Assembly: GCA_964489835.1 (NCBI GenBank)
Contig: CAZBBC010000008.1
Location: forward strand, 10,992 to 74,991
DNA: 64,000 nucleotides
DNA from: an uncultured Calditrichota bacterium
GTDB lineage: Bacteria > Calditrichota > Calditrichia > JAJRVZ01
Direction of reading: 5' to 3'
The position numbers and the translations under genes were made by a program. The notes beneath the pieces were generated by a model. The model worked only from the letters and a program-made list of their open reading frames with translations. It made no database searches and was not told where the DNA came from. Position 1 is the stretch's first letter. Each line of letters begins with the position of its first letter. This document shows positions 18,103-54,700 of this stretch, one piece after another.

Positions 18103-18441
18103 TTAAATATGTTTTTCAATCTTTGATTCCAGCATCGATTTTGGAACGGCACCAACGACCTGATCAACAATCTGTCCATTCTTGAAGATCAATAATGTCG
18201 GAATAGAACGTATACCAAATTTCATGGCGGTATCCGGATTATTGTCGACATCCATTTTTACTACTTTAAGACTACCTTCTCTCTCAGTTGCCAGCTCCTC
18301 AACCATTGGAGCAATCATTCGGCATGGTGCACACCATACGGCCCAGAAATCTACCAAAACCGGTAATTCTGATTTTAGAACCTCTTCTTCAAATGTCGCG
18401 TCGGTGACCTCAAAATATTTTCCCATTGCATCCTCCATCAT
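18103..18441 (-). CDS. trxA: Thioredoxin.
   Basis: [22 protein letters not shown] carries the WCxPC active site. 112 aa. Confidence 0.9.
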
Positions 18442-18454
18442 CTATTGTAATGTA

Positions 18455-18760
18455 TTTTTACTCTTCTATGTTATTTATTTACAATCCTCTAACCCCCTTT
18501 TCTGGGGCTGTTGTAAAACTAGCGAAAAAGACCAAAACTGTCATGCCTGTCCCTTCCTGTCATTCCTGCGAAGGCAGCAATCCAGAAGGGATAAACTCCA
18601 GCAGTGATCCATGTTAACAAACCACCTAAGTGTCTGTTTTTTATGGATTCCTCCCGCTCCATGAGCGGGACGGGAATGAAAGTTCGTTACGCATATTAAC
18701 AAACAAGGTCTGATTTTAAGGGGAGACTTAATGGTCGCCATATGCTATATTTAAAATTCA
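18455..18760. repeat. Composite of intergenic repeat modules (families C and E).
   Basis: ctcttctatgttatttatttacaatcctctaacccccttttct is near-identical to 41516-41560. tgtcatgcctgtcccttcctgtcattcctgcgaagg matches 17215. ttttaaggggagacttaatggtcgccatatgctatatttaaaattcatga matches 61681-61735 and, inverted, 27245-27300. Hairpin tcccgctccatgagcggga. Confidence 0.6.
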
Positions 18761-18916
18761 TGATTTATTTAGACTAACTAATAGTTTTATTATTTACTAA
18801 CTTTTTATAATCATCCATCGTATTAATATTAAAAAACAGGTCAGAAATATACCCAGCATTTTTAAAATCTACAAATTTGACGTTTAATTTTTCAATATGG
18901 TATAAGAGAATTTTCC

Positions 18917-19393
18917 CTACTTCCCTATTTCAAGTATTTTTATTTTTACCCGGGCAACACCTTCCGGTATCATACCCAGATCTTGCGCCGCACGGAAGGA
19001 TAAATCAATCTCTCTACCCTTCACAAACGGTCCCCGGTCATTTATACGAACGATCACAATTTTGTTATTTTTCAGATTGGTCACTTTCAATATTGTGTTA
19101 AAGGGTAAAGATTTATGGGCAGCAGATTTCTTATACATGTCAAATACTTCTCCATTCGCTGTTTTTCGACCATGAAATTCTTCGGCATAATAGGATGCAC
19201 TTCCATAGATGATACTTCCCGCATGATATTTATCCCGGTTTAAATTCTGGTTTTTAATACTATTGGAGGAGAATCTCGCACTTGGCGCACAATTCAGAAC
19301 GGCTAGTACAATATATAATAATATGGAAGTTTTAATAAAAAAAATAGCGGTCAATGGAAGCGCCCTGCGTTGATTTTTATTGCGATGCAACAA
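18917..19393 (-). CDS. Septal-ring lytic transglycosylase RlpA-family protein (double-psi beta-barrel).
   Basis: [21 protein letters not shown]...[28 protein letters not shown] matches the RlpA/DPBB signature. N-terminal signal/TM. Confidence 0.75.
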
Positions 19394-19426: not shown

Positions 19427-21598
19427 TTATTTTTTATTATCCAAATCAGATTTTTCCCTTCGATTGTCTATATCCTTTTGTTCGCTTTCTGTTTTATCGT
19501 CAGGAGATTTTATACTTTTATCATTTTCCGGCTTTATAACTTTATTTATATTTTCTTTTTGTAACGTTGAAGATAGAGAGTCTACAGCCGGTTTTGGTGA
19601 AGACAAAGAATCCGCGGCCGCTGGTAGTGGTATATCTTCTTCGACAGGTGGTTCCTTTATCTTGTTCTTGGCAATCTTGCCAATTTCCGAACTAGGATAT
19701 TCTTTCGCTGCCAGGGTATAAGCATCAACAGCACCCTGAATATCCTGAATTTTCGTTTCATATATCCAGGCAATAACATATCTGGACTTCTGTGCGAGCA
19801 TACTGCCGGAATCCTCATTAGCTATCTGTCTGAAAATATCAATCGCTCCAAGATATTTCTCCTCCGAAATCAATTTTTCGCCTTGCAAAAAAAGATTTTT
19901 GTACGTTAATATTTCATCCTCGTCTTCGGTTGTATCCTCTTTTGGTCCAACTAAATAAGCGGCATATGGCGATTCCGGATAATCCAAGAGAATAATTTGT
20001 TTGATCGAATCAGCTTTGTCAAATAATTGCAGACCGTAATTATAAGTATAATAGAGAGAATAATACGCCTTGGGCACCAGAATCGAGTCGTTAGATGATT
20101 TGATGAATTTCTGATATGCTACTGCTGCACTGTCGTAATTAACAAGAGTGAGCAGGAAGAATTCAGCCATGGAAAACATGTTTTTCTTAAGAGATTTTTC
20201 TATATCAGCGGCAAATCTAATCACCGGCTTTTTAGCCGGCTTTGCTGTTTCTTTTCCTTTTATTTTTGTTTCATTTACAGCTTTCTCAAATTCAGATCTA
20301 TCAAATTCAACCGCATTAATTTCAGCTGTATCAATTTCAGCCGCATTAATTTCAGCTGCATTAAGTTCAGCTGCATTAATTTCAGCCGCATTAATTTCAG
20401 CTGCATTAATTTCAGCCGCATTAAGTTCAGCTGTATCAATTTCAGCGTATTCCAGCCCCAATGAATCAAAAGCGAGACTATCGGTATTAATTTTTTCCAA
20501 ATCGGCTAAATCACGTTCAATATTCGTCCTGATCTTCCGATACTTGTCTAAAATGCCCGCTCTTTTATCCGCCTCTTCTTTGAATTCTGTATCTCTGTAT
20601 TCCTTTCCGACCTTTTGATATAATTTTTTTGCAGAATCAATATTCACATAATAAAATTCCATTAACTTTGCCATCCCGTAAGCAGCAATAGCAGATCCTT
20701 CTGTTCGGGGATAGGTTTCCATTACTTCATTATAAACATCGGTCGCCTCGGGAATCTGATCTTTGATGACATAGATATCTCCAATCCGTGCATTGATCAG
20801 GGCTTTTTTATCTAAAAATTTACCTATTTGGGCAATTTCTTCGAGAATTGTTATTGCCCGGTCCTGTTCATCCAGTTCAATCAGGCAATCCACCTTTCTC
20901 ATGTTCGCGTCATAAAGTATTTCAACCGATGTATCAAATTCATTGACACCATCATATCTGGTCAGAGCCTCCGAATAATTCTGTTCATTATAATAGGTTT
21001 CTGCAATAAGGAATTGTGCTTTGGCTTCCAATTCCTCATTACTGGAATTCTCAATGATCTTATCAAATTGAACACGTGCATTTTTGTAGTCTTCATTTTT
21101 ATAATATATTCGTCCCAAATTATGATAGGCCTCAGCAGTCAAATCATCATCATCATCAGAAGAAATCACTCTGTTCAGGTATTCCAGCGCTTCATCATCC
21201 CGATCCATTTCTATCAATGCCATCGCTAACAATAAGTAAGCTTCAGTGATCCACTCACTATTTTTATATTTTGCATTAAACTGTAATAAATATCTTTCTG
21301 CTTTCGGGTACTCTTTAACCTGATAATAGCTCTTTCCAATCAGGAGCAACGCTTCATCCGCATAGCTACTACTATCACTGTAGATATTTATCAGCTTCCA
21401 GCATTTATCAATGGTTTTGTAAAAATCGTTGCGTATATCCGATGTGATTTCGCCATCCCGACTACTTTTTATTTTTTTAACACCTTCCTCATACTTTTCC
21501 TGGGCATTGAAAAGCGTATTATAGTAGGCACATCCAACGATCATCACCAAAGGCATTAAAAATAAATAAATTGTTTTTCGCATTCTCATCATGATCAA
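19427..21598 (-). CDS. TPR-repeat lipoprotein with an internal (N/D)(A/T)AE(I/L) pentapeptide tandem-repeat tract and a Lys/Asp/Pro-rich low-complexity C-terminus.
   Basis: Lipobox MIVGC. Multiple TPR-like helices (AEAYHNLGRIYYKNEDYKNA etc.). Central tract AEIDTAELNAAEINAAEINAAEINAAELNAAEINAAEIDTAEINAVEF. C-terminal PKPAVDSLSS...KSDLDNKK. Confidence 0.7.
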   Translation of the reverse strand: MIMMRMRKTIYLFLMPLVMIVGCAYYNTLFNAQEKYEEGVKKIKSSRDGEITSDIRNDFYKTIDKCWKLINIYSDSSSYADEALLLIGKSYYQVKEYPKAERYLLQFNAKYKNSEWITEAYLLLAMALIEMDRDDEALEYLNRVISSDDDDDLTAEAYHNLGRIYYKNEDYKNARVQFDKIIENSSNEELEAKAQFLIAETYYNEQNYSEALTRYDGVNEFDTSVEILYDANMRKVDCLIELDEQDRAITILEEIAQIGKFLDKKALINARIGDIYVIKDQIPEATDVYNEVMETYPRTEGSAIAAYGMAKLMEFYYVNIDSAKKLYQKVGKEYRDTEFKEEADKRAGILDKYRKIRTNIERDLADLEKINTDSLAFDSLGLEYAEIDTAELNAAEINAAEINAAEINAAELNAAEINAAEIDTAEINAVEFDRSEFEKAVNETKIKGKETAKPAKKPVIRFAADIEKSLKKNMFSMAEFFLLTLVNYDSAAVAYQKFIKSSNDSILVPKAYYSLYYTYNYGLQLFDKADSIKQIILLDYPESPYAAYLVGPKEDTTEDEDEILTYKNLFLQGEKLISEEKYLGAIDIFRQIANEDSGSMLAQKSRYVIAWIYETKIQDIQGAVDAYTLAAKEYPSSEIGKIAKNKIKEPPVEEDIPLPAAADSLSSPKPAVDSLSSTLQKENINKVIKPENDKSIKSPDDKTESEQKDIDNRREKSDLDNKK
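20296..20458. repeat. About 10-11 copies of a 15-bp tandem repeat (consensus TTCAGCYGCATTAAK) inside the TPR-lipoprotein gene.
   Basis: Read directly: ttcagccgcattaatttcagctgcattaagttcagctgcattaatttcagccgcattaatttcagctgcattaatttcagccgcattaag... The repeat is in frame and encodes the AEINA pentapeptide. Confidence 0.9.
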
Positions 21599-23777: not shown

Positions 23778-23799
23778 ATGGAACCTCTGATTATGATTA

Positions 23800-23841
23800 G
23801 ATGTATACTTGATTTATTCAGATGTATACTTGATTTATTCA
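23800..23841. repeat. Perfect 21-bp tandem direct repeat (x2) immediately upstream of the membrane-protein gene.
   Basis: gatgtatacttgatttattca gatgtatacttgatttattca. Contains the GTATAC palindrome. Lies 23-64 bp upstream of the start codon at 23777 (minus strand). Confidence 0.85.
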
Positions 23842-23880: not shown

Positions 23881-24000
23881 CCACGAATTACACGAATTAT
23901 ACAAGGATTTCACAAATTTTTGCTATATTATTCATGTCTTTTTTGTTGAATCCAAATAAAACAGTATTAATATATTATTTCTAATTCGTGTAATTCGTGG
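23881..24000. repeat. 120-bp MITE-like element bounded by a perfect 19-bp inverted repeat.
   Basis: ccacgaattacacgaatta ... 82 bp AT-rich ... taattcgtgtaattcgtgg. Same CACGAA/TTCGTG dyad theme as other elements. The track ORF 23778..23984 spans it and is likely spurious. Confidence 0.8.
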
Positions 24001-24049: not shown

Positions 24050-24730
24050 TCAATTTTGATTATTTATAAGAACCAATTGTGTTTCAGCATCTTTTACGCG
24101 ATTTTCAGTTTTTGCTTCTTCGGCCAGTTGTTGAAACAGGGATCGGGATTTATCTAAATCCCCTGTCTTTTTATACAAGAGTGCGGCAAGATAATAATAG
24201 TTATCCGATTCAGGAAATTGAGGTGCCAAATTTGCCGCCCGTTCATATAATTCGGCTGCTTCCACAAAATTTTTCGATTCCTCGTTGCAAGCGGCCAATC
24301 CGGCATAACCGGAAGCCAATAAAATATTACTACCGGAATAGGCATCGACAAACCGCCCAAAATAATCACGAGCCTGATCATATTTTTTCTGCTGGAATAA
24401 TATATTTGCCATTAAAAACATGGCCTGATCGGCAGCATCTGTACCATCATATTCATCAATTAATTTAATCAGCCGTTCACTTGCTTTTGGAAGGTTCCCG
24501 TTGGCAAATTCAATTTCGGCAATACCCAATTGTGAATTGGCTTCTATATCGGTTTGCTGAGAATTGTAATAATAGAAAATTCCTATAACAATAACAACGC
24601 CTGCAATGACCACTGCTCGCATTATTGTTGGGTAATTTTCATCGATATACGATTTTGTCTGCAGAGAAAATTTTACAAATTTATCTTCCTTCAGATCCTG
24701 TTTTCTGATATTTTTCTTTGGTTTTAACAT
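24050..24730 (-). CDS. Membrane-anchored TPR-like protein (YfgM/YbgF-like).
   Basis: N-terminal basic segment plus one TM (AVVIAGVVIVIGIFYYY), followed by TPR-like helices (QAMFLMANILFQQKKYDQARDYF; AAELYERAANLAP). Confidence 0.55.
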   Translation of the reverse strand: MLKPKKNIRKQDLKEDKFVKFSLQTKSYIDENYPTIMRAVVIAGVVIVIGIFYYYNSQQTDIEANSQLGIAEIEFANGNLPKASERLIKLIDEYDGTDAADQAMFLMANILFQQKKYDQARDYFGRFVDAYSGSNILLASGYAGLAACNEESKNFVEAAELYERAANLAPQFPESDNYYYLAALLYKKTGDLDKSRSLFQQLAEEAKTENRVKDAETQLVLINNQN

Positions 24731-25928: not shown

Positions 25929-27020
25929 TTACCGAAGGAGTATCATTTTCTTTCCATCCTGAAATTCACCAGCCTCAATCCTGTACAGGTAAACGCCACT
26001 TGCGAGATTGCTCCCATCAAACGTATAGGTATGATTTCCCGCCTGTAGTTTCTTATTCACAAGTGAAGCAATTTCTCCTCCAAGAATGTTGTAGATCTTG
26101 AGAGTAAGAAAAACTGACTGGGGTAATGTGAATTCGATAGTGGTTGTTGAATTGAATGGATTTGGGTAGTTCTTTTCTAAAAAATAGATTTCAGGATTAT
26201 GATCATTCGATTGGATACTCAAAGGTGAAGGGCTGCCTGCATTTTCCCATGCTGTTCTCCAGAGACTGGCAAGATCTAATATTGCTTTTTGAATAGAAAC
26301 TGTTGTTAAATGTTCAAGATCTTGCCATAAAATATTATAATAAGTTATATTGAAAGTGGGATCCTGAGCGCTGGCAAGATCATCTGCAATCATAATACTA
26401 TCCACATAGGGATAAATTTCTTCAATATGTAAAAAAACAGTATCAATAACATTTGACCAGTATTTTCCTGTGCCTGTTGCTAAGGGTAGTTGTGAAAGAT
26501 GTGGATTTATCATCTGTGTTTCATATCGTGAATGAATACCATCATTTCCTGTGTGTTGCCCATTATAATTTAAAGTCAGATGCAATGGCTGGTGAGAATC
26601 TGCCACATAATGTCCCAGTTCAGCTGCAATTTGCCAAACATCATCCCATTGACCAGCTGCCATTAATGTGCTTAAACTATCTGTCCACTCTTCAATAATC
26701 CAGGGGATAATGCCGTTATTTTGAACAATTGAAAGGTCGTAAAGCGTTATTAAACTATCCAAATTATGCGGAAGAGTCCCGGTAAAAAATTCCGGATAAT
26801 AATCAATATCAATATAATGATAGTATCCCGGTAATGGATCGGTATCCGGATCGACCGAATGTTGTTGCAGATAATTTCGATGATCCTGAAAAAACGACAT
26901 TTCAGTAGGTAGATAATCTACCGCATGTTCATTTATATAACCATGTGTATCCCATCCCCATTTTTTATTTTGGGCCAATAGTGAGGAACATACCATGAGA
27001 CTTATTAAAAAGTATTTCAC
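25929..27020 (-). CDS. Secreted S1/P1-nuclease / zinc phospholipase-C-superfamily-like protein with type IX secretion (T9SS) C-terminal sorting domain.
   Basis: Signal peptide. N-terminal WGWDTHGYINEHAVDYL resembles the Zn-binding start of P1 nuclease/PLC. C-terminal about 80 aa NYPNPFNSTTTIEFTLPQSVFLTLKIYNILGGEIASLVNKKLQAGNHTYTFDGSNLASGVYLYRIEAGEFQDGKKMILLR is a typical Por_Secre_tail. Confidence 0.7.
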   Translation of the reverse strand: MKYFLISLMVCSSLLAQNKKWGWDTHGYINEHAVDYLPTEMSFFQDHRNYLQQHSVDPDTDPLPGYYHYIDIDYYPEFFTGTLPHNLDSLITLYDLSIVQNNGIIPWIIEEWTDSLSTLMAAGQWDDVWQIAAELGHYVADSHQPLHLTLNYNGQHTGNDGIHSRYETQMINPHLSQLPLATGTGKYWSNVIDTVFLHIEEIYPYVDSIMIADDLASAQDPTFNITYYNILWQDLEHLTTVSIQKAILDLASLWRTAWENAGSPSPLSIQSNDHNPEIYFLEKNYPNPFNSTTTIEFTLPQSVFLTLKIYNILGGEIASLVNKKLQAGNHTYTFDGSNLASGVYLYRIEAGEFQDGKKMILLR

Positions 27021-30374: not shown

Positions 30375-31592
30375 TTATTTACCGAAATGGATTACACCAC
30401 CAACGGTTACTCTGAAATCATTGACTGTATAGTCCACATCGGTACCAGCCACTTGAGCTCCGACATAACTGCCGAAAACATACTCGAAAGATCCATCCAG
30501 GATGATATTACCCATAATAATTCCCAAACCGGCGGTCACCGCATTAAAAGAAATCTGATCATCATTTTCATCGATACCTGGAGTTGGCAGTGTATAAAAT
30601 CCAACACGGAGCGGTAAGACATTATTACCTGCCTCAGCAAGATATTCCAGACCGACATGGATGGAATTAGCATTCTCAGCGTCCTCTAGTTTTTCTGTAA
30701 AAACTTCTCCATCGACTTCATATTCCCATTCGGCATTGGACCAGGGACGGCTTCTGTAATCGGCGGCAATGGTTAAATTATCACTGGCCCGTAAAGCCAG
30801 ACCGATACTGAAGGCAAAAGGAACATTTAGCTTATATTCAACATCATCAAAATCTTCCATCTTTGAATTTATCGTTACTGAATAAGGTAAGTTTAAATTG
30901 GCCCCGATCTGGACTGTCGGTGATGGTTTGACCAGTAAACCGATGTCAAATCCCACGCCGGAATATTTTTCCGAAGATTCGTCCTTATCATCACCGATAA
31001 AACCGCTGGTTTCTGATAAATAATCTGTGCTTCCGATTAAAATATTTGCTGCGGCACCAACGGAGATCATCTCATTTAACTGAATACCAAGGGCGGGAGA
31101 GATGGCGTCAACACCGCCTGTATTTTCCACCTTTGTTGTCGCTTCAAAACCCATGGCCTTGAAGGTCATTTCTACATTTTTTGTAAAATCAAACATACGG
31201 CGATAGGCGACACCACCGACGATGTTGATATTGCCGGCACTAAACGGAATCGCCAGACTGGCGAAATTTAACTGAAAAGTCGATCCTGTTTCCACGCTCA
31301 CATCGACATTCTGATAATCCGGATCTAGTGACCCAAAGCCGAAGCGTCCGATCACACTGGCTTCCGGGGAATATAACTGGGTTAAACCGGCCGCATTCCA
31401 GGAAATAGCGGTGGCATCATCGGCCAAACCGGTAAAGGCATTGCCCATACCGGCAGCACGTGCCCCATTACCATTCAGGACATATTGTTGTTCATCCTGT
31501 CCCATTATAACCTGACTTAAGACAAATACTAAAACCACCATGAAAAATAAAGATAAAAATTTCATTCGTTCCTCCCGTTGTACATTTAACAT
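30375..31592 (-). CDS. FadL/TodX/PorV-like outer-membrane beta-barrel protein.
   Basis: Signal peptide, then NGNGARAAGMGNAFTGLADDATAISWNAAGL, the hatch-domain signature of the FadL/Toluene_X/PorV superfamily. Alternating beta-strand pattern. C-terminal aromatic (HFGK). Confidence 0.65.
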   Translation of the reverse strand: MLNVQREERMKFLSLFFMVVLVFVLSQVIMGQDEQQYVLNGNGARAAGMGNAFTGLADDATAISWNAAGLTQLYSPEASVIGRFGFGSLDPDYQNVDVSVETGSTFQLNFASLAIPFSAGNINIVGGVAYRRMFDFTKNVEMTFKAMGFEATTKVENTGGVDAISPALGIQLNEMISVGAAANILIGSTDYLSETSGFIGDDKDESSEKYSGVGFDIGLLVKPSPTVQIGANLNLPYSVTINSKMEDFDDVEYKLNVPFAFSIGLALRASDNLTIAADYRSRPWSNAEWEYEVDGEVFTEKLEDAENANSIHVGLEYLAEAGNNVLPLRVGFYTLPTPGIDENDDQISFNAVTAGLGIIMGNIILDGSFEYVFGSYVGAQVAGTDVDYTVNDFRVTVGGVIHFGK

Positions 31593-31596
31593 TTAG

Positions 31597-32757
31597 TTAT
31601 TTGGTTAAAAATTTATCTCCGATTGATAAAATCCCTCCTTCAGAAGTTAGTTGTTTAGAAACACTGTATTTATCAAAAGCATCCGTTACCAGGACTTCTC
31701 CCAGCACGGTTGTCTCTTTTCCTAAAACTTCACCGGTTATCGGATGCTTGATGGGTGCACCCTCTTTATAAATGACACATTTCATTCCCTTTTTTAACCC
31801 GCCGTTTCGTCCGACATCCAGGATAAGTTGTTGTCCGTCAATTTTTATGATATATCCTTCGACCAGTGGTAGCGACTCGGTAATTTTCCGGGCCAGATTT
31901 TCAATCGCATTCTTTACACTCTGAGCATCGGAGCTGCTGGTGTAGGCATCGTGCGCGACAATAATCGCGGCTGATTCCGTATCAATAACCCGGGCATCTA
32001 TGCTGAGTGCTCCTGAAGCAGTAGCGGCGACACTGCCGATCACGATGGCGTCCACTCCGATACCCTTACCGATCTCTGCGGCCGTAGCCGCATCCAGTAC
32101 GCCCGTCTGGCCCAGTGACTGCTCGGCAATCACCTGGTCCAAAGCCGCCCTCTCCATTACCTTAAACCTATCCTGGTTCCACATCACGGTGATCATTTTA
32201 TCCAGAATAATTTCTCCTAAATCCTTGCTGGCCCCTTTGTTTTCAAACGGTAATACAGCCACTCCCATACGTTCACCGACCAGTTTGATGGTCTGTTTCC
32301 CGACAATCATATCCGTTTCCCTCGTCGATGGGACCATGGGTTTTACATCGGTTTTTTTCAGGGCCTCGGTGGGCTTTTTGGGTGTGGGTGGCGGGACGCC
32401 TCCGCCGATTTGACGAAGATACTCATTGGCACGCTCTGATGGCTCGTCCTGTAAAGATTTTTTCAGTTCCCTTTGTGCACCGGCGGTATCACCAAGATTG
32501 TAAAGGCATATGCCCAGTTCACGGTGCGGAAAATATTCAATAAAATGTAACCCATAGGTTCGCACTTTCTGCTTATCCGTGGGATTCCCTTTGATCGCAT
32601 CTTTAAGTAAAGTGGCAGCCTTCTGGTAATCACCCTTTTCCATTGCTTTTAATCCTTCATCATATACTTTAAACCACTCGCCTCCTGCCTGGAGTTGGGA
32701 AACAAATAAAAAACCCATGACAAGAATTAAAATAACCGGTAACCATTTATGGTTCAT
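31597..32757 (-). CDS. Periplasmic TPR protein fused to a CsgG/LpoB/TolB-N-like alpha/beta domain and a C-terminal beta domain.
   Basis: Signal peptide (cleavage after QLQA). TPR (YDEGLKAMEKGDYQKAATLLKDAIKGNP). Pro-rich linker. GVAVLPFENKGASKDLGEIILDKMITVMWNQDRFKVMERAALDQVIAEQSL...AAEIGKGIGVDAIVIGSV matches the CsgG/LpoB-type fold signature. 4-nt gap to the downstream FadL-like gene. Confidence 0.55.
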   Translation of the reverse strand: MNHKWLPVILILVMGFLFVSQLQAGGEWFKVYDEGLKAMEKGDYQKAATLLKDAIKGNPTDKQKVRTYGLHFIEYFPHRELGICLYNLGDTAGAQRELKKSLQDEPSERANEYLRQIGGGVPPPTPKKPTEALKKTDVKPMVPSTRETDMIVGKQTIKLVGERMGVAVLPFENKGASKDLGEIILDKMITVMWNQDRFKVMERAALDQVIAEQSLGQTGVLDAATAAEIGKGIGVDAIVIGSVAATASGALSIDARVIDTESAAIIVAHDAYTSSSDAQSVKNAIENLARKITESLPLVEGYIIKIDGQQLILDVGRNGGLKKGMKCVIYKEGAPIKHPITGEVLGKETTVLGEVLVTDAFDKYSVSKQLTSEGGILSIGDKFLTK

Positions 32758-54507: not shown

Positions 54508-54700
54508 ATTCATACCGCAGCATATTGCTGCAATCAAAGAAAAAAATAGTCCACGGATTATCCGTCTACGCCGGATCAGGCGAAGACTGACACGAATTAG
54601 CACGGATTAAAACTAAAATAATATTAATTTTTATTTAAAATCTGTGTCAATCCGTGAAATCTGTGGATAAAAAACGCTGCGCCGCTTTGAGAGACGAATT
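54508..54700. repeat. Family A repeat element (inverted orientation) plus adjacent CGTG-dyad module.
   Basis: 54508-54615 is the reverse complement of 33131-33236 (cataccgcagcatattgctgcaatcaaag...gtccacggattatccgtctacgccggatcaggcgaagactgacacgaattagcacggattaaaac), followed by tctgtgtcaatccgtgaaatctgtggat. Confidence 0.85.

Follow-up and report, generated by a model that had tools for sequence, protein, structure and literature searches.

SprE and PorW, TPR lipoproteins of the 'Extended Translocon' of type IX secretion (T9SS) in Bacteroidota, are the closest described systems to the protein considered in this work. PorW has its anchor beneath the outer membrane and looks into the periplasm; proteinase K reaches it only after lysis (PMC8754138). 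In the case of SprE from F. johnsoniae, the N-terminal part contacts SprA and a Finger Region has been described, the centre of which binds PorD; swapping residues E445-T550 for (GS)10 caused no detectable T9SS defect, and neither did deletion of the C-terminal 113 aa, which are poorly ordered (PMC10994853), a dispensability that refers to a distant organism and to laboratory assays only. SprE is also O-glycosylated, sites in the Finger Region included. T9SS is confined to the FCB group, which includes Calditrichota (PMC12398890), and our literature search returned no paper linking Caldithrix or Calditrich* with type IX secretion (T9SS).

We have analysed a 64-kb stretch of DNA from an uncultured Calditrichota bacterium (the window, 64,000 nucleotides in all), in which a gene for a TPR lipoprotein carries a tandem array of 15-bp units. 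The gene and the parts of its product that are needed below are the following:

19427-21598, minus strand: gene for the 723-aa TPR lipoprotein, with a TTG start (720 aa, P0001, when counted from the ATG at 21589)
21530-21598, minus strand: predicted signal peptide ending in ...LVMIVGC, with the lipobox Cys23, read from the sequence (of 67 relatives, at least 90% keep C23)
21503-21532, minus strand: C-AYYNTLFNA, the most conserved motif in the family alignment, directly after the lipid-anchored Cys
20462-20581, minus strand: long helix, aa 340-379, proposed 'finger 1' (AF2 pLDDT 94-97 up to about aa 370)
20450-20491, minus strand: pre-array segment INTDSLAFDSLGLE, with two D-S-L sequons ('DSxLxDSx' is conserved here family-wide)
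20285-20449, minus strand: the array, 11 units of 15 bp in the reading frame of the ORF 19427-21598, corresponding to aa 384-438
20315-20434, minus strand: array core, units 2-9, DNA consensus GCAGCTGAAATTAAT (AAEIN), self-identity of 88-91% at offsets 15-60
20213-20284, minus strand: basic K/P-rich stretch after the acidic array, net charge +6 from its sequence
20147-20212, minus strand: proposed 'finger 2', with which the TPR scaffold continues, a helix of aa 463-484 (AADIEKSLKKNMFSMAEFFL, AF2 pLDDT >90)
19430-19651, minus strand: C-terminal tail, aa 650-723, predicted to be disordered (pLDDT 33-48)
19559-19618, minus strand: second in-frame repeat, (A/V)DSLSSxxx, two copies within the tail, each unit with a D-S-L sequon

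The 15-bp tandem array is real and far above chance. In fact, TRF detects it at 20313-20446 with a period of 15, 8.9 copies, 86% matches and a score of 205, whereas the next-best array in the window scores 86. Read in frame, the successive pentapeptides are YAEID TAELN AAEIN AAEIN AAEIN AAELN AAEIN AAEID TAEIN AVEFD RSEFE, which follow the pattern x-A-E-(I/L/F)-(N/D) and give the tract a net charge of -14. Much of what a first-pass annotation had said of this gene is borne out: the tandem 15-bp organization (about 10-11 units in that annotation, 11 when read in frame), the AEINA-type pentapeptide, the ORF of 723 aa, the lipoprotein nature of its product (lipobox IVGC), the location of an acidic linker between two TPR blocks and the charged C-terminal tail, which is proline-rich too. 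However, its coordinates for the array (20296-20458) were off by about 10 nt, and the array is not 'perfect': identity among units 2-9 is 88-91%, and just two unit pairs (u3=u5 and u4=u7) have the same DNA sequence. Differences restricted to synonymous or conservative changes, which it had also described, are found in the five central units (GCG/GCA synonymous, I/L) but not in the flanking ones, where A/T, N/D, A/V, I/F and Y/R/S changes occur. The core units 2-9 are the recently expanded part of the array. The longest exact internal repeats are of 32 nt at offset 45 and of 29 nt at offset 30, indicating that blocks of two to three units were duplicated. Two ORFs that overlap the array, 20148-20618 (plus strand) and 20275-20469 (minus strand), were discarded as by-products of the repeat that translate into 'SAALISAAL...' and 'LKLMQLKLM...', respectively, and the Rfam and tRNA scans revealed nothing of relevance to the array locus.

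The assignment of the host protein as a distant homologue of SprE/PorW is well supported by sequence profiles and by predicted structure. NCBIfam NF052312 (PorW/SprE) is its top match, at 123 bits and over profile positions 25-380 of 716; as the equivalog cutoff of 250 bits is missed and the C-terminal half of the HMM is unmatched, we name it a SprE/PorW-like distant homologue and not a curated equivalog. The same model is the top match for relatives from Calditrichaceae, Ignavibacteria and Melioribacteraceae, and in these as in the host protein the match is one N-anchored collinear stretch of 118-156 bits. Furthermore, a profile of the family aligns with F. johnsoniae SprE (8gl8_I) at E=4.5e-33 in one collinear stretch, profile positions 1-622 to chain residues 1-756, and the remaining PDB profile matches shown are local, cover at most ~200 of 680 positions and are often repeated. 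The same chain is the top Foldseek match of the model (E=2.1e-16, 663 columns, TM 0.49/0.56), the second match being at 2e-10. Two other identities, YbgF/CpoB (the 'TolA-binding protein' of the JGI label) and BamD, were rejected because they match only in TPR_6 stretches that are short and recur, in contrast to the single long match of PorW/SprE, which is N-anchored and collinear. Within the C-AYYNTLFNA motif, N31 and A32 are invariant among the 67 relatives, A24, Y25, N27 and F30 are kept in at least 90% of them, and the motif aligns with 'KYNILYNG' of SprE, which belongs to the N-terminal part in contact with SprA. A search of the genome contigs for relatives yielded only distant TPR proteins, with 23-38% identity over parts, and look-ups of the exact sequence, for the host protein and for P0001, matched no recorded contig. 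By inference from SprE and PorW, the lipoprotein would face the periplasm.

Regarding the secretion system itself, the window holds one gene that could encode a substrate:

25929-27020, minus strand: putative T9SS cargo gene, with a domain like phospholipase C / S1-P1 nuclease ahead of a C-terminal sorting domain (Por_Secre_tail)

This gene lies 5 kb from the array gene and its sorting domain matches PF18962 at 46.3 bits (cutoff 27). A barrel protein encoded at 30375-31592 shows a weak likeness to PorV/PorQ/BamG (56 bits against a cutoff of 90). Because none of the core T9SS genes (sprA, gldKLMN, porV and porD) was found among the ~50 ORFs of the window, the presence of a T9SS is drawn from this one CTD cargo gene together with the phylogenetic placement, which was obtained from AsnS homologues.

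The AF2 model of the full-length protein has a mean pLDDT of 83, with confident stretches at aa 1-378 and 455-650 and low confidence at aa 379-449 and 653-723. The array falls in the first of the low-confidence segments: the tract has a pLDDT below 55 in the full-length model and of 40-45 when folded alone, with no strands in either. Structure prediction had been recommended in the first-pass annotation to decide between a coiled and a helical spacer, and the tract is instead predicted to be disordered (pLDDT 40-55). The helix at aa 340-379 aligns just ahead of the Finger insertion of SprE, and the helix at aa 463-484, which matches the family motif SLxKNxFAxAEFFL, aligns after it; the insertion, about 100 disordered residues of SprE, thus occupies precisely the gap that separates the helices on either side of the array. 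We therefore propose, on the basis of these alignments and models, that the array would constitute the disordered centre of a Finger Region. The linker is about 20-120 aa long across 62 relatives and is unalignable, its acidic-then-basic order is conserved across the SprE-like family, and eight of the ten tandem repeats detected in this family lie in the linker or in the tail. All these data indicate that the architecture of F. johnsoniae SprE, a Finger Region plus a disordered tail, is kept at the distance of Calditrichota, with a Finger centre that evolves freely, which agrees with its experimental dispensability and extends it.

Comparison with close relatives shows how the array changes. 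A strain with 96.3% DNA identity to the window (L001) has 11 units as well, after one loss and one gain. When both arrays are compared in fixed register there are 28 mismatches in 165 nt (17%), while the rest of the gene differs by 2.6%; when whole units are aligned, only 10 mismatches are required plus the loss of one unit and the gain of another, and a 60-nt exact match, corresponding to four consecutive units, is shifted by one unit. Two relatives with 73-76% amino acid identity (L011 and L012) have 6 units, and in more distant ones the pentapeptide repeat is absent. These differences in unit count indicate that the expansion is lineage-specific and fairly recent (the first-pass annotation had named recent expansion or concerted evolution), and the comparison among relatives that it had recommended reveals differences in both count and arrangement (11; 11 after loss and gain; 6; none), with the frame kept, as it had anticipated, in all the alleles seen (11, 11' and 6 units). 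The second repeat, in the tail, has two copies in the window and in L001, and four in L011 and L012. In contigs of the same strain the array does not change: L001 and L013, which come from two different samples, are 100% identical over 3464 bp, array included, and the window differs by 1 mismatch in 2164 bp (99.95% identity) from L002, the single close locus found in our metagenome search, which has the same array, possibly comes from the same source sample and begins 10 nt before the array. Between lineages at 73% identity the DNA units have diverged but the E-Phi-(D/N) periodicity is kept, a hint that the peptide is under some selection and that the tract is perhaps not purely neutral. Moreover, both of the 96%-identical strains have 11 units despite independent indels and the length could be constrained, although this refers to only two strains.

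We consider that the array is probably an imperfect, in-frame minisatellite generated by slippage within a low-constraint, disordered loop of a periplasmic SprE/PorW-like lipoprotein, and no contingency locus. Units of 15 bp, and blocks of 30 or 45 bp, would be gained and lost via replication slippage or unequal recombination. The acidic tract may function as a flexible spacer or as a docking segment whose exact length is tolerated, in which case unit changes would be nearly neutral, the loop being only lengthened or shortened, and the turnover would be paced by evolutionary and not by generational time. A loop that is floppy and probably dispensable points to ordinary repeat slippage in a tolerant linker, with no switch for surface variation. 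Contingency loci, as known in Haemophilus, Neisseria and Campylobacter, consist of perfect short units or homopolymers, typically of 1-7 nt, whose changes in repeat number shift the frame or the promoter spacing and turn expression on and off at high rates. The first-pass annotation had considered the array a plausible contingency locus in a predicted surface/periplasmic lipoprotein; rapid turnover of the 15-bp unit would then diversify an exposed lipoprotein and allow escape from phage, predators or immune recognition. The variation of copy number and arrangement by lineage is consistent with this, as are the variation of the second in-frame repeat in the tail (2 versus 4 copies) and the start of the L002 contig so close to the array, as can occur where assembly runs into repeats or heterogeneity. 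However, we regard it as very unlikely: the protein would be periplasm-facing by homology, as PorW is, and not surface-exposed; the repeat has a 15-bp unit with 86% matches and exact repeats of 32 nt at most; a change in copy number adds or removes 5 codons; contigs of one strain that come from different samples do not differ in their arrays; and F. johnsoniae can do without the corresponding region. Units that are imperfect and a multiple of 3 allow no on/off switching and provide only a modest substrate for slippage.

Two further explanations concern the tract itself. Short-read assembly might have collapsed or inflated the array, which with 165 bp is about one short-read length, and the break of L002 at the array edge would fit with this; but with exact internal repeats not longer than 32 nt the array is resolved by k-mers of the usual sizes, the frame is uninterrupted, the arrays of the window and L002 are identical (with the reservation that both may derive from one sample) and so are those of L001 and L013, from different samples, which leaves only a very slim chance to an artefact. 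The tract could also fold as a small right-handed beta-helix of the pentapeptide-repeat (Rfr) type, because in A-E-(I/L/F)-(N/D)-(A/T) position i-2 is Ala and position i is hydrophobic, like in the A(D/N)LXX of the Rfr proteins (for example Np275/276, Alr5209 or the DotG repeats), with which it shares the five-residue periodicity. Weak matches were indeed found to Pfam PF25296 (E=1.6e-5), to NCBIfam models (Alr5209, DotG and PipB) and to PDB entries 4yfo, 6omx and 2j8k and DotG (E=1e-4 to 3e-3). Nevertheless, all of them are below the curated cutoffs (PF25296 25 versus 45 bits, Alr5209 24 versus 125 bits), PF00805 is unmatched by the host protein, Glu occupies i-1 where Asp/Asn is expected, 11 units would make just 2.75 coils, relatives have only 6 units or none, and AF2 predicts no beta structure (pLDDT 40-55) either in the full-length protein or in the segment alone. 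A beta-helix is accordingly hard to believe.

The disordered parts of the family are also rich in the Bacteroidota O-glycosylation sequon. The motif D[ST][AILVMT] occurs 4.1 times per 100 aa in the family linkers and 3.0 times in the tails, against 0.23 in the other 48 proteins of the window, a 13-18 times enrichment in the disordered regions of the SprE-like family; the mirror motif and the E-variant occur 0.5-0.7 times per 100 aa in the same linkers and tails, and the mirror motif 0.24 times in the other 48 proteins. A compositional or helix N-cap effect was considered and rejected, since in these segments the sequon outnumbers the mirror motif and its E- and N-variants 6-40 times, and the forward and mirror motifs are equally frequent in the other window proteins (0.23 versus 0.24). 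This strong, order-specific enrichment hints that this system of O-glycosylation is not confined to Bacteroidota.

In this context, the number of repeats could tune a function, each unit being a short linear motif, such as one to which a PorD-like partner docks or one that accepts an O-glycan (D-T-A in the ancestral unit), so that copy number would set the partner stoichiometry, the amount of glycan or how far the finger loop extends over the translocon pore. This would agree with the sequon enrichment in linkers and tails, with the glycosylation of SprE at Finger-region sites among others, with the x-x-E-Phi-(D/N) pattern kept in arrays of diverged DNA, with the 11 units held by two strains despite opposite indels and with the one sequon per unit of the independent tail repeats. 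However, the expanded AAEIN units of the window have no sequon (N-A-A), no PorD homologue was found among the ~50 ORFs of the window and replacement of the Finger centre is phenotypically silent in F. johnsoniae (PMC10994853), and we find such a tuning role rather unlikely. Similarly doubtful, from the sequences at hand, is that, in Calditrichota and the FCB phyla next to them, the disordered Finger loop and C-terminal tail of the SprE-like lipoproteins of the T9SS represent arrays of Bacteroidota-type O-glycosylation sequons, D-(S/T)-(A/I/L/V/M/T). The pentapeptide array would then go back to a module of tandem sequons, (D-T-A-E-Phi)n, with ADSLSSPxP and NGIDSTATxL in the tail as further examples; if true, the general O-glycosylation of 'Bacteroidota' would reach Calditrichota and repeat turnover would determine how much glycan a part of the secretion machine carries. 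To our knowledge, no O-glycosylation system of the Bacteroidota type is known in Calditrichota, which go unmentioned for O-glycosylation in the review of Bacteroidota O-glycosylation that we searched. In the slippage-generated minisatellite that we favour, every unit of the ancestral type, T-A-E-Phi-D, probably carried one O-glycosylation sequon (D-T-A), and the lineage of the window would have expanded an A-A-E-I-N variant that has lost it.

The array would thus represent the ordinary birth of an in-frame minisatellite in a disordered linker and should not be counted as a locus of phase or antigenic variation. Furthermore, a SprE/PorW-like family can be recognised in Calditrichota, Ignavibacteria and related uncultured lineages, where its members are labelled today as 'TolA-binding protein' or 'TPR protein'.

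Compared with known systems, the host protein has in common with SprE and PorW an N-terminal lipoprotein signal and, right after the anchor, the conserved motif Y-N-x-L-(F/Y)-N, and with SprE an extended TPR scaffold, which aligns collinearly with all that is ordered in SprE and is broken by a disordered insertion with a helix on each side (the Finger Region), as well as a disordered C-terminal tail, SprE being the best match both among natural proteins by profile and in the PDB by structure. In contrast, it is shorter (723 aa versus 870 and about 1160), only 18% identical, and comes from Calditrichota instead of Bacteroidota, and its Finger centre is a pentapeptide tandem repeat whereas the aligned Finger of F. 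johnsoniae SprE has no evident one. With Rfr proteins it shares the periodicity, a small residue at i-2 and a hydrophobic one at i, but it differs in the sub-threshold matches, the Glu at i-1, the 11 units only and the lack of a predicted beta-helix. With contingency loci the likeness is limited to repeated DNA within the coding region of an envelope-associated gene, the units here being of 15 bp, imperfect and frame-preserving. The array resembles the VNTRs and minisatellites of disordered linkers in envelope proteins, in which the unit is likewise a multiple of 3, the count varies between strains or species, the region is of low complexity and unconstrained, and an origin by slippage or unequal recombination is probable; this one would lie in a periplasm-facing component of a secretion machine instead of a surface adhesin or antigen.

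The repeat array and a second repeat lie in one gene, which encodes a TPR lipoprotein:

19427-21598, minus strand: TPR lipoprotein ORF, 723 aa from a TTG start and 720 aa from the first ATG (the latter being family protein P0001)
20285-20449, minus strand: repeat array, 11 units of 15 bp (aa 384-438), in the frame of the ORF 19427-21598
19559-19618, minus strand: second in-frame repeat, (A/V)DSLSSPxP, in the tail (aa 661-680)

The ORF bears out its first-pass annotation as a 723-aa TPR lipoprotein with a charged tail: its signal peptide, which closes with the lipobox IVGC, precedes a first TPR block, the acidic array, a K/P-rich basic stretch and another TPR block, whose C-terminal tail is charged and rich in proline. 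Its top NCBIfam match is PorW/SprE NF052312 (123 bits, aa 24-355 against profile positions 25-380), which is likewise the top match of relatives from Calditrichaceae, Ignavibacteria and Melioribacteraceae MAGs (118-156 bits), each over a single N-anchored collinear stretch; in unrelated large TPR proteins the first match was YbgF, and the PorW match was out of register. Furthermore, a family profile built from 67 members gave a single alignment to Flavobacterium johnsoniae SprE (8gl8 chain I; E=4.5e-33; profile 1-622, SprE 1-756) spanning essentially all of the ordered part of SprE; the other PDB matches listed were local, covering at most ~200 of 680 positions, and many were repeated. The most conserved family motif, C-AYYNTLFNA, stands immediately after the lipid anchor and aligned to 'KYNILYNG' in the N-terminal part of SprE, which is reported to contact SprA (PMC10994853). 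The AF2 model of the protein (mean pLDDT 83) also had 8gl8_I as its best PDB match (E=2.1e-16, 663 columns, TM 0.49/0.56), with the runner-up at 2e-10. Homology to SprE/PorW is well supported, but the NF052312 score lies below the 250-bit equivalog cutoff and leaves the protein outside the curated PorW/SprE equivalog, so we call it SprE/PorW-like.

TRF confirmed a 15-bp tandem array (20313-20446, 8.9 copies, 86% matches), with a score of 205 against 86 for the second-ranked array of the 64 kb. The units read, in order, YAEID TAELN AAEIN AAEIN AAEIN AAELN AAEIN AAEID TAEIN AVEFD RSEFE. The first-pass annotation was right in kind and is partly confirmed, but its coordinates were about 10 nt off and 'perfect' was an overstatement, since only units 3 and 5 and units 4 and 7 are identical in DNA and core units 2-9 share 88-91% identity. 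Its statement that units differ by synonymous or conservative changes holds for the central units (GCG/GCA and I/L) and fails for the outer ones, which carry A/T, N/D, A/V, I/F and other replacements. The two longest stretches repeated exactly within the array, of 32 nt (offset 45) and 29 nt (offset 30), point to growth by duplication of blocks of two to three units.

According to Lauber et al. 2024 (PMC10994853), SprE has 13 TPRs, and a 'Finger Region' of 160 aa breaks up the ninth; there, two helical fingers directed across the pore of SprA flank ~100 unresolved residues, to which PorD binds, and the last 113 aa of SprE are likewise disordered. In the profile alignment, the disordered residues of SprE form an insertion exactly between the helices flanking the array (aa 340-379 and 463-484), and AF2 confidence is high for aa 1-378 and 455-650 and low for aa 379-449 and 653-723, which together place the array in the predicted disordered centre of the Finger Region. 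When aa 330-500 were folded alone, pLDDT was 40-45 across the array and beta structure was absent. A pentapeptide-repeat beta-helix was rejected, as it had only sub-threshold matches and was contradicted by the AF2 model and the small number of units.

Among 62 relatives, the linker holding the array (between the motifs 'DLxDL' and 'SLxKNxFAxAEFFL') varies between roughly 20 and 120 aa in length, has an acidic part followed by a basic one, is unalignable and carries the pentapeptide repeat only in the immediate lineage of the window; the linker of one relative, P0021, has an unrelated 7-aa duplication, and of 10 tandem repeats found across the family, 8 fall in linker or tail. Metagenome contig L001 (protein P0113; 96.3% ungapped DNA identity to the window) also has 11 units, and in fixed register its array differs at 28 of 165 nt (17%) against 2.6% in the rest of the gene. 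Unit-level alignment reduces this to 10 mismatches together with the loss of one AAEIN unit and the gain of one KSEFD unit, and 60 nt (four consecutive units) become exact once shifted by one unit. In contigs L011 and L012 (aa identity 76% and 73%), the array comprises 6 diverged units, (T/S)(A/T/S)E(I/F/V/M)D, and the tail repeat has four copies, against two in the window and L001. Copy number thus differs among lineages. Within strains the array was identical: L001 and L013, from two different JGI samples, agree completely over 3464 bp including the array, and L002 (Ga0315553) matches the window array exactly (99.95% over 2164 bp). Unit number therefore changes on an evolutionary timescale, and the assembled contigs compared (L001/L013, window/L002) gave no sign of rapid switching. 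L002 begins 10 nt before the array (window about 20459), a break typical of an assembler stopping at a repeat, which could hide read-level heterogeneity. In JGI sample 3300060480, two related species (L001 and L011) with 76% identical SprE-like proteins co-occur, with 11 and 6 linker units and 2 and 4 tail units, respectively.

The simplest account is that slippage or unequal recombination would generate units within a low-constraint, disordered, periplasmic loop that would tolerate them. The array had been proposed as a plausible contingency locus in a possibly surface-exposed lipoprotein, a reading that is not supported: the units are imperfect and of 15 bp, their gain or loss is always in frame, and the array is apparently stable within a strain. 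Moreover, protease reaches the homologue PorW only after lysis (PMC8754138), so that by homology the protein would hang beneath the outer membrane, facing the periplasm. That unit number tunes the function of the lipoprotein seems to us improbable, even though the x-x-E-Phi-(D/N) periodicity persists in arrays with diverged DNA, PorD docks in the corresponding part of F. johnsoniae SprE and, after opposite indels, two strains still have 11 units. Secretion in F. johnsoniae showed no detectable change when E445-T550 of SprE was exchanged for (GS)10 or when the tail was deleted (PMC10994853). Our verdict is that the Finger loop of this SprE/PorW-like lipoprotein contains an ordinary, frame-preserving minisatellite.

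Two further observations concern neighbouring DNA. An NTP_transf_3 (MobA-like nucleotidyltransferase) remnant of roughly 180 bp (18714-18896) lies between a thioredoxin gene (18103-18441) and a DPBB/RlpA-like gene (18917-19393); the gene is intact (190-204 aa) at the corresponding position in L001, L011, L012 and L013, about 460 bp having been lost relative to the 96%-identical strain. Upstream of another TPR gene (24050-24730), intergenic repeats (23799-23841 and 23882-23999) comprise a perfect 21-bp direct duplication (AGATGTATACTTGATTTATTC, twice) and two pairs of 9-bp repeats (CACGAATTA and TAATTCGTG) in mutually inverted orientation; short repeats of a similar kind, CACGAATTAG and CACGGATTT, appear again at 54591 and 61506.

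Where ancestral-type units (T-A-E-Phi-D) adjoin, each junction reads D-T-A, and the tail repeats contain D-S-L; both fit the motif for O-glycosylation in Bacteroidota, (D)(S/T)(A/I/L/V/M/T) (PMC8550257). In 62 family members this sequon occurs at 4.13 (linker) and 3.03 (tail) per 100 aa, against 0.68 and 0.50 for the mirror motif, 0.57 and 0.46 for the E-variant, and 0.23 (sequon) and 0.24 (mirror) in the other 48 window proteins; this is 13-18 times the latter and about 6 times the mirror motif, in counts that are not independent because the sequences are related. At least one sequon is present in 53/62 linkers and 54/62 tails. The window protein has them at aa 373, 378, 388, 423, 663 and 673, and its expanded AAEIN units have lost them (now N-A-A); the tail of P0005 carries an independent 10-aa repeat, NGIDSTATxL, four times with one sequon each. 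F. johnsoniae SprE is O-glycosylated, including at S538 and T550 of the Finger Region, and the modification contributes to its stability. The motifs suggest that SprE-like proteins may be O-glycosylated outside Bacteroidota too, which we offer as a lead rather than a result.

The source organism belongs to the Calditrichota: its AsnS shares 83% identity with proteins from Calditrichales and Calditrichia MAGs and 77% with sequences carrying the label Caldithrix abyssi (window GC 39.7%). No core T9SS genes were seen in the 64-kb window, which holds one CTD-bearing gene:

25929-27020, minus strand: T9SS cargo gene, zinc phospholipase C / S1-P1 nuclease-like domain plus Por_Secre_tail (46 bits)

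Its product is a candidate secreted enzyme, and the sorting domain directly indicates use of T9SS-type cargo signals by the organism. A minus-strand pair (30375-32757), a lipoprotein-like TPR + CsgG-like protein (31597-32757) and then a FadL/Toluene_X-like barrel (30375-31592) with weak, below-cutoff similarity to BamG (75 bits) and PorV/PorQ (56 bits), possibly forms a module for export or assembly at the outer membrane. According to PMC12398890, T9SS and CTD cargo occur only in the FCB superphylum; the array protein is a distant, newly recognised SprE/PorW-like lipoprotein of Calditrichota.
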